Notes under the pieces: generated by a model | What the model saw: the letters and a program-made list of their open reading frames with translations, nothing else | The model's database searches: none | Told to the model about the DNA's origin: nothing | Virus record (IMG/VR): IMGVR_UViG_3300035390_000014 | Span: 64,001-128,000 of that record | Strand: one strand, 5' to 3' | Source: a virus | Taxonomy: Duplodnaviria; Caudoviricetes | DNA: 64,000 nt | Shown here: positions 42,452 through 62,783 of the stretch, piece after piece | How the letters are laid out: the number at the start of each line of letters is the position of its first letter | How positions within the stretch are numbered: the stretch's first letter is position 1 | Position numbers and translations under genes: made by a program

Positions 42452-42527
42452 AGTCCATTAGCTTAATCGGGAAAGCACAGTCCTTATAAGACTGAGAGAC
42501 TGGGATCGTAACCCAGATGGACTACCA
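42452..42527 (+). tRNA. tRNA-Ile(TAT)
   Basis: CAGTC-CTTATAA-GACTG; A73; encoded CCA; variant T-loop. Confidence 0.85.
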
Positions 42528-60025: not shown

Positions 60026-60697
60026 ATGTTATGTGATTATGGTTGTGGGCAAGAAGCTAGATATACAATAGGTAATGGTAAATTATGTTGTTCTAAACAT
60101 TATAATTCATGCCCGGAACTTAGAAGAAAGAATAGTAATTCTGTTAAAAAAAGTAGAGAAAAAGAAAAAGAGTTGGGAATAAAAAGATATTCTCCACAAT
60201 ATTTAAAAGTTAAATGTCAATATTGTGATAGAATAACTACACAAAACATGATAAAAAGACATGAAAAATTTTGTTATTTAAATCCATTAAATATAAAATT
60301 ATGCCCTGTTTGTAATAAACCAGTTAAAGATTATAAAAATGCAACTACATGTTCTCAACAATGTGGTCAAAGATATTTCAGAAGTATGTTTGATAAGGTT
60401 AGACGTGAAAGAAATATGAGTTGGATTGATGATTTATATGATGGTGGTTCACATTATAAGACTATTTGTTTTAGATATCATGAGAAAAAATGTATTATAT
60501 GTGGTGAAGATATAGCAGTATCTGTTCATCATTATGATGGAAATCATGATAATAATAAACCAGAAAATTTAGTTCCTTTATGTATGAATCATCATGTTTA
60601 TATACATAGTACAGTTGAAAATATGTATATTATAAAAGAATGTGTTGATGAATATGTTAAGGAATATTGTAAGAAAAACAATTTAATGCACCTGTAA
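60026..60697 (+). CDS. HNH homing endonuclease
   Basis: CDYGCG module; CIICGE....VHHYDGNHDNN.PENLVPLCMNHH. Confidence 0.9.
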   Translation: MLCDYGCGQEARYTIGNGKLCCSKHYNSCPELRRKNSNSVKKSREKEKELGIKRYSPQYLKVKCQYCDRITTQNMIKRHEKFCYLNPLNIKLCPVCNKPVKDYKNATTCSQQCGQRYFRSMFDKVRRERNMSWIDDLYDGGSHYKTICFRYHEKKCIICGEDIAVSVHHYDGNHDNNKPENLVPLCMNHHVYIHSTVENMYIIKECVDEYVKEYCKKNNLMHL

Positions 60698-60761
60698 TTC
60701 AATGGTAGAATGCAAGTTTTGTAATCTTGTTATGGGGGTTCAAATCCTCTCAGGTGCTCCA
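60688..60761 (+). tRNA. tRNA-Thr(TGT)
   Basis: CAAGT-TTTGTAA-TCTTG, CCA. Confidence 0.85.
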
Positions 60762-60770
60762 AACAAATAT

Positions 60771-60847
60771 GCAACTGTAGCTCAGTCTGGTAGAGCGTCT
60801 GGGTGAAGTCCAGAGCGTCGGGGGTTCAATTCCTCTCGGTTGCACCA
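60771..60847 (+). tRNA. tRNA-Phe(GAA)
   Basis: TCTGG-GTGAAGT-CCAGA, A73, CCA. Confidence 0.85.
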
Positions 60848-60857
60848 ATAATTTTAT

Positions 60858-60949
60858 GGGTTCGTCACCTAGATGGCCGATGGTACCAGACTTTTAATCT
60901 GGAGCGGATATCAATCCCCACGTGAGTTCGAATCTCACCGAACCCACCA
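60858..60949 (+). tRNA. tRNA with Lys(TTT) anticodon and 19-nt variable arm
   Basis: CCAGA-CTTTTAA-TCTGG then AGCGGATATCAATCCCCAC, T-arm GTGAG-TTCGAAT-CTCAC, A73, CCA. Confidence 0.8.
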
Positions 60950-62694: not shown

Positions 62695-62783
62695 TGCGCT
62701 ATAGAGTAGTTGGTCAACTCACTTGTCTCATAAGCAAGACTCCCTAACCGGAGACGTAGGTTCGAATCCTACTAGCGCTCCCA
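62695..62783 (+). tRNA. tRNA with CAT anticodon and 17-nt variable arm
   Basis: CTTGT-CTCATAA-GCAAG then ACTCCCTAACCGGAGAC; U1.U72 mismatch; C73; CCA. Confidence 0.8.

Follow-up and report, generated by a model that had tools for sequence, protein, structure and literature searches.

According to our analysis, positions 60858 to 60949 (plus strand) of the stretch of DNA studied here, from a giant phage of sediment, encode a 92-nucleotide (nt) tRNA that carries a lysine anticodon, UUU, on a class II body with a long variable arm. The stretch, which we call the window, is 64,000 nt long and corresponds to bases 64001 to 128000 of the IMG/VR virus record IMGVR_UViG_3300035390_000014, a record of 202,719 bp that is about 65% complete and has a GC content of 30%. 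The gene was called by ARAGORN, by the Rfam tRNA model RF00005, and by R1, a covariance model of the family of long-armed phage lysine tRNAs to which it belongs. RF00005 matched it with 55.4 bits (E value 2.5e-10; threshold 29 bits) over the full length, 1 to 71. The combination of a Lys(UUU) anticodon and a class II body had been proposed in an earlier, sequence-only reading of this DNA, and our analysis confirms it.

The acceptor stem consists of 7 bp, its 5' strand GGGUUCG lying at 60858 to 60864 and its partner CGAACCC at 60939 to 60945 (sequence, ARAGORN, and minimum free energy [MFE] fold), all features of the gene being on the plus strand. U8 and C9 connect it to the D arm (60867 to 60884; ARAGORN), which has a 3-bp ACC/GGU stem and a 12-nt loop (U13 A14 G15 ... 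G18 G19 ... U22) with a U13.U22 mismatch. The anticodon arm, CCAGA-CUUUUAA-UCUGG (60886 to 60902; sequence), displays the anticodon UUU at positions 34 to 36 (60893 to 60895; ARAGORN) and contains both the paired C28-N-G30/C40-N-G42 motif and the U36-A-A-U-C40 motif, as defined in the literature (PMC12445682, PMC12409363). It is followed by a variable region of 19 nt (60903 to 60921; ARAGORN and MFE fold), in which an AGC spacer precedes a hairpin made of GGAU (60906 to 60909), the loop AUCA, and AUCC (60914 to 60917), and a CCAC spacer ends in C48, the final base of the region, with which G15 is able to pair. The T arm GUGAG-UUCGAAU-CUCAC (60922 to 60938; Rfam and ARAGORN) and, at 60946 to 60949, the discriminator A73 (60946) with the encoded CCA (both from the sequence) complete the gene. 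An unconstrained MFE fold recovered the acceptor, anticodon, variable, and T helices, and the acceptor and T helices have the 7/5 arrangement. Every structural point of the sequence-only reading, namely, the 19-nt variable region, the GGAT/ATCC hairpin, the 3-bp D stem, G15:C48, and A73, is thus present. A variable region longer than 10 nt with a stem-loop, the 3-bp D stem, and the unpaired 13:22 position define a class II architecture; canonical tRNA-Lys has instead a class I body with a 4- to 5-nt variable loop and a 4-bp D stem.

The gene is one of many. A narrow search pattern, consisting of the anticodon arm of the 60858–60949 tRNA, 20 to 32 free bases, and GTTCGAATC, matched 23 IMG/VR contigs, and a looser pattern, with the anticodon stem left free, gave at least 120 IMG/VR matches. 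When ARAGORN was run on all the fetched loci, it returned 1357 distinct tRNAs, and 124 distinct long-armed Lys tRNAs (107 UUU and 17 CUU) were identified in 104 phage loci. Their anticodon loop reads CU[U/C]UUAA in 121 of 124 cases, and their discriminator is A73 in 100 and U73 in 23 of the 124. The variable region is mostly 15 or 17 nt long and is built from about 1 nt, 3 to 4 bp, a tetraloop, and 4 nt, the 3' spacer being usually CAUC and, in 7 members, CCAC as at 60858–60949. The arm described here (4-bp stem, AUCA loop, CCAC) fits this layout except for its 5' spacer, which measures 3 nt and not 1. The 3' spacer of other long-armed isotypes in the same loci is mostly 3 nt in Tyr, 1 to 2 nt in Leu, and 1 nt in Ser. 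With R1, for which 30 long-armed Lys tRNAs from other phages were used, the 60858–60949 tRNA scores 86.8 bits, which ranks it 11 of 30 and is far beyond chance; the best scores outside the family are 70.7 (class II Cys), 66.6 (class II Thr), 64.8 (Tyr), and 63.8 bits (class I Lys). Long-armed Lys tRNAs of other phages (0.70 to 0.74) are also most of its nearest relatives and all of the closest six. UUU and CUU versions occur as pairs, a class I Lys(UUU) is additionally present in 40 of 115 loci, and in some phages the long-armed genes are the sole phage-encoded Lys tRNAs.

In 596 gigabases of bacterial and archaeal genomes, one per species, the narrow pattern was found in 3 places, all of them in multi-tRNA arrays and 2 of them on short contigs of metagenome-assembled genomes (MAGs), and we consider the family to be essentially restricted to phages. 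The sole match in a complete bacterial genome is in Thalassospira xianhensis (NZ_JPWA01000001; L048:2536-5596), where a long-armed Lys(CUU) and a long-armed Lys(UUU) lie at the margin of an array of 12 tRNAs. An AbiEii/AbiEi abortive-infection toxin-antitoxin pair (AbiEii, 1e-42) and a gene with a T5orf172 domain are located at a distance of about 1.3 kb from the two tRNA genes; enzymes of the AbiEii/MenT type modify the 3' end of tRNAs.

Among cultured phages, megablast with the 3.5-kb region and blastn with the 60858–60949 tRNA gave no matches, and a more typical member was needed as the query. The family is represented in the Caulobacter phages phiCbK and CcrBL9 (and relatives) and in the Xanthomonas phage XacN1, whose copies score 80.4 (CcrBL9), 77.0 (XacN1), and 64.9 and 61.2 bits (phiCbK) with R1. 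They carry Lys anticodons and a class II core, are 84 to 91 nt long, and are located in phage tRNA arrays; their sequences are about 60 to 70% like that of the 60858–60949 tRNA. Their annotations read simply tRNA-Lys and are silent on the arm, as is the paper on the XacN1 genome. In phiCbK (JX163858; L050:1568-1658), ARAGORN finds an unannotated 91-nt long-armed Lys(UUU) beside the annotated 84-nt Lys(CUU). Xanthomonas phage XaC1 (L052:1492-1579) encodes an 88-nt class II tRNA, annotated as tRNA-Ser, with the anticodon ACU, unusual in bacteria, which reaches 57.9 bits with R1. The CcrBL9 copy differs from the one studied here in having U73 and not A73. U73 occurs in 19% of the long-armed Lys tRNAs versus 5% of class I phage Lys tRNAs, and its carriers include the CcrBL9 and Thalassospira copies, both alphaproteobacterial, and one MAG contig labelled Verrucomicrobia; it may be linked to hosts with a class I lysyl-tRNA synthetase (LysRS), for which A73 counts little (PMC9976931). 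Long-armed Lys tRNAs in phages were nowhere described in the published full text that we searched, the 245-tRNA coliphage library of the P2 OLD paper lying outside that search, and the family thus appears to be unpublished.

The conservation of the arm was assessed in several ways. For the first 30 distinct members, the best hairpin of the variable region has a mean of 3.73 bp, versus 2.65 ± 0.14 bp after shuffling, and none of 2000 shuffles reached the observed value. Pairing over the cloverleaf plus arm amounts to 93.6% in an unfitted MAFFT alignment, versus 35 to 49% when the partners are slid, and the arm helix itself is 72.6% paired, with double-sided changes at all four pairs. The arm helix is 89.7% paired on the model-fitted alignment, which is biased to the structure of the model, so that the MFE fold, the shuffle test, and the MAFFT result serve as the independent checks. 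On the raw MAFFT alignment, RNAalifold missed the arm helix, which was then specified and tested through pair counts and shuffles. Across the family, the 3-bp D stem is 98.6 to 98.9% paired, likewise with compensatory changes. The compensatory changes in the variable arm show that it is under selection.

The same changes bear on the alternative that the RNA is not a decoder at all but a decoy or inhibitor of nucleases, a pseudogene, or a precursor that loses its extra segment. Roles of viral tRNAs beyond translation rescue have been raised in the paper on the PARIS immune system, and the genome that encodes the 60858–60949 tRNA also contains anticodon-less tRNA look-alikes. On the other hand, the features needed for decoding are intact and conserved (7/5 helices, U33, A37, the D-loop GG, the T loop UUCGAAU, and the encoded CCA), the UUU/CUU pairs match the codons, and the hairpin is maintained by compensatory changes. 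The last point leaves unsupported the idea that the extra segment is spliced out, which the sequence-only reading had named as an outcome that would overturn it, and we know of no bacterial mechanism for splicing a variable region. We therefore deem this alternative highly improbable.

That reading had also described the body as tRNA-Tyr-like. With bacterial tRNA-Tyr the gene shares A73, G1:C72, U35, the 3-bp D stem, a D loop of the GG-CC type, and the anticodon arm CAGACU.U.AAUCUG, and its arm layout (about 1 nt, 3 to 4 bp, a tetraloop, and 3 to 4 nt) is close. The description thus holds for the geometry of the variable arm, the D loop, and the anticodon arm but not for the acceptor stem, which is unlike that of Tyr; acceptor stems in the family do not track those of Tyr, the 3' spacer is mostly of 4 nt (CAUC type) rather than 3, and the anticodon is UUU rather than GUA, U35 alone being common to both. 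In a comparison of whole bodies, the nearest groups were class II Cys, class I Lys, class I Leu, and Tyr, all at about 0.52 to 0.55, and among tRNAs of the same genome the similarity was 0.476 to Tyr, 0.611 to Trp, and 0.587 to Leu(UAG). The possibility of a recent anticodon mutant of tRNA-Tyr was rejected, since Tyr is not singled out and the phage's own Tyr, Leu, and Ser genes are not close. The resemblance to Tyr in the D loop, anticodon arm, and arm layout is one of shared class II design and not of recent descent.

Which amino acid the tRNA receives is a separate question. Lysine identity consists of the anticodon triplet and A73, and in the human system a transplanted UUU anticodon suffices for other tRNAs to accept lysine (PMC9976931). 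The determinants of tyrosine are A73, U35, G1:C72, and the long arm; seryl-tRNA synthetase (SerRS) depends on the arm, and leucyl-tRNA synthetase (LeuRS) ignores the anticodon (PMC9976931). The 60858–60949 tRNA presents the lysine determinants, its loop CUUUUAA agreeing with the bacterial CUNUUAA and its discriminator being A73. Three points weigh against charging with lysine. Class II LysRS approaches its tRNA from the side of the variable loop, so that a long arm might hinder charging; 19% of the family carries U73; and the tRNA also has all four tyrosine determinants, A73, U35, G1:C72, and the long arm. The last set overlaps with that of lysine and does not discriminate, and therefore the sequence of a single gene cannot settle its charging.

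The family as a whole is more informative. In the 70 loci that have both types, the acceptor stems of long-armed and class I Lys tRNAs of the same locus are 0.526 identical, versus 0.420 ± 0.014 after permutation of the loci (a value as high in 0 of 2000 permutations), and the same test with Tyr, Leu, Ser, Arg, Thr, Asn, Glu, Phe, and Met gave no signal (all p > 0.2). The acceptor helix is therefore tuned together with that of the ordinary Lys tRNA of the same phage. In a first sample of other odd long-armed tRNAs, the discriminator likewise fits the anticodon and not the A of Leu/Tyr or the G of Ser, with U73 in 3 of 3 Cys, G73 in 2 of 2 Trp, G73 in the single Asn, U73 in the single Gly, and C73 in 2 of 2 His tRNAs, both His genes also encoding G-1; the exception in that sample is Met(CAU), whose long-armed tRNAs have C73 versus A in most class I Met genes.

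These results have to be set against the proposal that the tRNA is a missense or dual-identity tRNA, its class II body being charged by tyrosyl-tRNA synthetase, SerRS, or LeuRS so that Tyr, Ser, or Leu would be inserted at AAA and AAG. The G1:C72 and G2:C71 pairs, A73, and the tyrosine determinants together with the arm, as well as the use of the arm by SerRS and the indifference of LeuRS to the anticodon (PMC9976931), are compatible with it, and the nematode nev-tRNAs, which insert Leu at Gly codons, provide a precedent (PMC4033280). The nev-tRNAs (Hamashima 2012; PMC4033280) are similar in joining class II bodies to anticodons of class I amino acids, yet they bear identity elements of Leu/Ser and receive Leu, and they serve rare codons at a low level of expression. 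The phage tRNA has signals of the Lys type, lacks the Leu and Ser elements, and reads the commonest codon of its genome, AAA, which makes up 7.85% of 47,678 codons (about 1 codon in 13; AAG, 1.45%). It shares A73 with Leu, but its core is G15:C48, as in most long-armed Lys tRNAs; of the 57 Leu tRNAs encoded at these loci, 51 have the Leu-type A15:U48 (with A14A15/U48). As regards Ser, the discriminator is A73 and the 3' spacer has 4 nt, versus 1 nt in Ser, 1 to 2 in Leu, and 3 in Tyr; the gene does have G2:C71, but this pair is not a constant feature of the family, which is devoid of the conserved G1G2/C71C72 and G73 of Ser type. Acceptor stems in the family go with those of Lys in each phage rather than with those of Tyr, Leu, or Ser, the anticodon differs from GUA, the UUU and CUU pairs cover both Lys codons and are in some phages the sole phage Lys tRNAs, and the other long-armed tRNAs have discriminators matched to their anticodons. 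The allo-tRNAs (Mukai et al. 2017, PMC5389517) are another set of unusual long-armed tRNAs of metagenomic origin with varied anticodons, but their acceptor/T helices are 8/4 or 9/3 and their identity is of Ser type; allo-tRNA and selenocysteine (Sec)-type readings of the gene were rejected on account of its 7/5 helices.

Altogether, the tRNA is very probably charged with lysine, judging from these sequence comparisons, and some dual Lys/Tyr charging may be accommodated within the small remaining probability; a missense tRNA we regard as quite unlikely. Neither a class I nor a class II LysRS was found in the 202,719-bp record, a weak negative in view of its being only about 65% complete, and a host enzyme would therefore have to charge this tRNA. 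Of the two explanations offered in the sequence-only reading, a remodelled Lys tRNA is favored by the conserved loop and A73, the existence of UUU and CUU versions, the covariation of acceptor stems, G15:C48, and the usage of AAA, whereas the missense explanation is not borne out.

As to what the arm may do, no tRNA is known to be a more common target of tRNA-cutting immunity than tRNA-Lys(UUU), which is attacked by PrrC, RloC, PARIS AriB, P2 OLD, a bacterial Schlafen, and Cas13a. AriB cuts between C40 and A41 and has Thr(UGU) and Asn(GUU) as further targets (PMC12409363). P2 OLD cuts after C28 and C40 within a paired CNG motif and, among the four tRNAs compared, cuts ThrU fastest, the others being Lys(UUU), Asn(GUU), and Val(UAC) (PMC12445682). 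Known escapes in phages work through substitutions in the stem or loop of the anticodon arm and in the D loop. Phage T5's class I tRNA-Lys(UUU), which resists AriB, escapes via U39A, A41C, and U16C; the presumed common job of the two tRNAs is the decoding of Lys codons during infection (PMC12409363). With canonical class I tRNA-Lys, the 60858–60949 tRNA shares the loop CUUUUAA, A73, G30:C40, A31:U39, and the covariation of acceptor stems within phages. It keeps U39 and C40, along with both CNG triplets, and has the 19-nt arm in place of the T5 type of escape; it has A16 where AriB prefers U16, and U41 for A41.

Long arms are unevenly distributed among isotypes, as counted only in loci that had been selected for a long-armed Lys(UUU). 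They were found in 17 of 73 Lys(CUU), in 11 of 41 Thr(UGU) versus 1 of 43 other Thr tRNAs (p 0.0014), in 11 of 56 Asn(GUU), 10 of 62 Met(CAU), 6 of 34 Trp, 4 of 27 Cys, and 4 of 43 His tRNAs, and in none or one each of Ala, Arg, Asp, Gln, Glu, Phe, Pro, and Val tRNAs, with no case in Ala, Asp, or Phe. Taken together, Thr(UGU) and Asn(GUU) have long arms in 22 of 97 cases versus 41 of 794 for all other non-Lys isotypes (p 9e-8). The isotypes in which odd long arms are concentrated, Lys, Thr(UGU), and Asn(GUU), coincide with the target set of AriB and with the substrates cut fastest by P2 OLD (PMC12409363, PMC12445682), a correlation that is compatible with nuclease evasion but falls short of proof. 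Furthermore, the paired CNG motif is present in 17 of 17 long-armed CUU tRNAs versus 23 of 56 class I phage tRNAs for CUU (p 8e-6), and U36AAUC40 is present in 46 of 79 long-armed UUU tRNAs versus 10 of 33 class I ones (p 0.012), considering the loci whose search pattern excluded the stem. The long-armed Lys tRNAs thus preserve the susceptible stem motifs more often than the class I ones do, again a correlation, as they should if escape came from the arm in place of stem mutations.

The Lys gene lies downstream of tRNA-Thr(UGU) and tRNA-Phe(GAA), both class I (60688 to 60847, plus strand; ARAGORN), with gaps of 9 nt between Thr(UGU) and Phe and 10 nt between Phe and Lys. Judging from this spacing, the three genes probably share one precursor transcript; a scan for promoters and terminators around them gave nothing above the shuffle background and none convincing between the genes. 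We propose that the Lys gene would be transcribed together with its two neighbors and that the host LysRS would charge the product via the UUU anticodon and A73, allowing it to decode AAA, the top codon of the phage, and AAG. The arm is predicted to protrude from the core immediately next to the 3' strand of the anticodon stem, on which the Toprim-type nucleases PARIS AriB and P2 OLD cut after C40. It would let the phage Lys tRNA escape nucleases that destroy ordinary class I tRNA-Lys, so that translation of phage mRNA could continue once the host tRNA-Lys is cut. Where the sequence-only reading had pointed to PrrC-type nucleases, we think that PrrC is not the best candidate, because it recognizes the anticodon loop, and that loop is unaltered in this tRNA; AriB and OLD, which act on the anticodon stem beside the arm, at C40, would appear to fit better.

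Taken as a whole, this explanation, a working jumbo-phage lysine tRNA with an arm most likely devoted to nuclease escape, comes close to an even chance in our judgement without quite reaching it. Its central element, that the arm protects against nucleases destroying ordinary tRNA-Lys, whether these belong to host defence or possibly to the phage's own host shut-off, is put forward tentatively. More tentative still is the specific form in which the arm could act as a steric shield against anticodon-stem nucleases (AriB, OLD), here and on Thr(UGU) and Asn(GUU) in other phages, leaving unchanged the stem sequence needed by LysRS and modification enzymes.

Several observations count against nuclease escape. 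The sample is conditioned on Lys(UUU) and its members are related, so that the Fisher tests overstate independence, and the retention of CNG and UAAUC may reflect shared ancestry. The phage that carries the 60858–60949 gene has ordinary class I bodies for Thr(UGU) and Asn(GUU), and its other odd long arms sit on Met(CAU), His, and Gly(UCC), none of them known to be a target of AriB or OLD. In addition, the toxin MenT3 prefers long-armed tRNAs, so that an arm may be costly (PMC7450476).

It is also possible, with a probability only somewhat lower than that of the explanation above, that the gene is a genuine lysine tRNA whose arm has no role in defence: the arm could be a class II legacy required by the core with its 3-bp D stem, or it could serve stability, processing, modification, or the binding of a phage factor, the job of the tRNA being the supply of AAA decoding. 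In a genome of 30% GC with AAA as its top codon, codon supply alone justifies the gene. The sequence of the arm is free and only its pairing is conserved, as would be the case for a purely architectural helix, and the geometry is near that of tRNA-Tyr (1 nt, 3 bp, a tetraloop, and 3 nt, versus 4 nt in the Lys family). The odd tRNA-shaped RNAs and the Ro60-like system of the same genome, moreover, make RNA-binding partners conceivable. However, long arms arose in several isotypes, with differing geometries and a very uneven distribution, which speaks for selection by a specific agent; a class I and a long-armed Lys(UUU) stand side by side in many phages, which plain supply does not explain; and the design is almost absent from cellular genomes.

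The remainder of the record offers further unusual tRNAs. ARAGORN detected 26 tRNA genes and a transfer-messenger RNA (tmRNA), all on a single strand. Three more tRNAs with odd anticodons, CAU, His(GUG), and Gly(UCC), have long variable regions. The first (window positions 62695 to 62783, plus strand; ARAGORN and Rfam) has a 17-nt variable region with a CUCC/GGAG stem, a U1.U72 mismatch, and C73; it is without the three G:C pairs of initiator anticodon stems and is a candidate Met, initiator, or Ile2 (lysidine) tRNA. The tRNA-His(GUG) lies beyond the window (record positions 130894 to 130980, plus strand; ARAGORN) and has a 15-nt variable region, C73, and an encoded G-1; it combines these His marks, C73 and G-1, with a Leu-type D arm (GAAAUUGGUAAAC, A15:U48). 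[quoted passage not shown] The tRNA-Gly(UCC), also beyond the window (record positions 143364 to 143446, plus strand; ARAGORN), has a 13-nt variable region and the Gly-type U73. Further genes are a tRNA-Ile(UAU) (window positions 42452 to 42527), an amber-suppressor-type tRNA(CUA) (record positions 147668 to 147743), and a 73-nt "Leu(CAA)" without CCA at record position 137503; the record also contains the anticodon-less look-alikes, other odd tRNA-shaped RNAs, and the Ro60-like system mentioned above. The reverse oddity occurs in the phage tRNA arrays of loci L023 to L152, where about 45 of 102 Leu tRNAs have a variable region shorter than 10 nt (e.g., 15 of 33 with UAG and 14 of 25 with CAA), as does one short Ser(UGA).

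The open reading frames flanking the tRNA genes weakly resemble homing endonucleases (HNH and SegE-type GIY-YIG), both below the Pfam cutoffs. Such open reading frames beside tRNAs recall the tRNA regions of T4-type phages. T4-type RNA ligase 1 (Rnl1) and RtcB were not found in the record, a weak negative, since the record is only about 65% complete and the control for Rnl1 matched no control genome.

According to textbooks as well as reviews, long variable arms in bacteria are confined to Leu, Ser, Tyr, and Sec, and bacterial tRNA genes are described as uniform (PMC4033280, PMC9976931). The phage class II Lys family breaks the long-arm rule, as do the smaller sets of Thr, Asn, Met, Trp, Cys, and His tRNAs. 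As a single instance, the 60858–60949 gene is ordinary: it is a remodelled Lys tRNA and not a missense tRNA, with nuclease evasion as a plausible function, and its interest lies in the family. What is new is evidence at the family level, namely, the covariation of acceptor stems, the discriminators, the arm spacers, the enrichment of certain isoacceptors, the stem motifs, and the near-absence from cellular genomes. The family raises the questions of how LysRS tolerates the arm, of whether the shape of the body, beyond mutations of the anticodon loop and stem, is a way for phage tRNAs to escape tRNA-cutting immunity, and of whether long-armed bodies might be used as tRNA scaffolds that are orthogonal or nuclease-proof. 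All three can be approached in culture, with phiCbK and CcrBL9 on Caulobacter and XacN1 on Xanthomonas. If a steric shield against anticodon-stem nucleases is indeed what the arm provides, the family would represent a general and so far undescribed "armoured tRNA" form of counter-defence across hundreds of phages.

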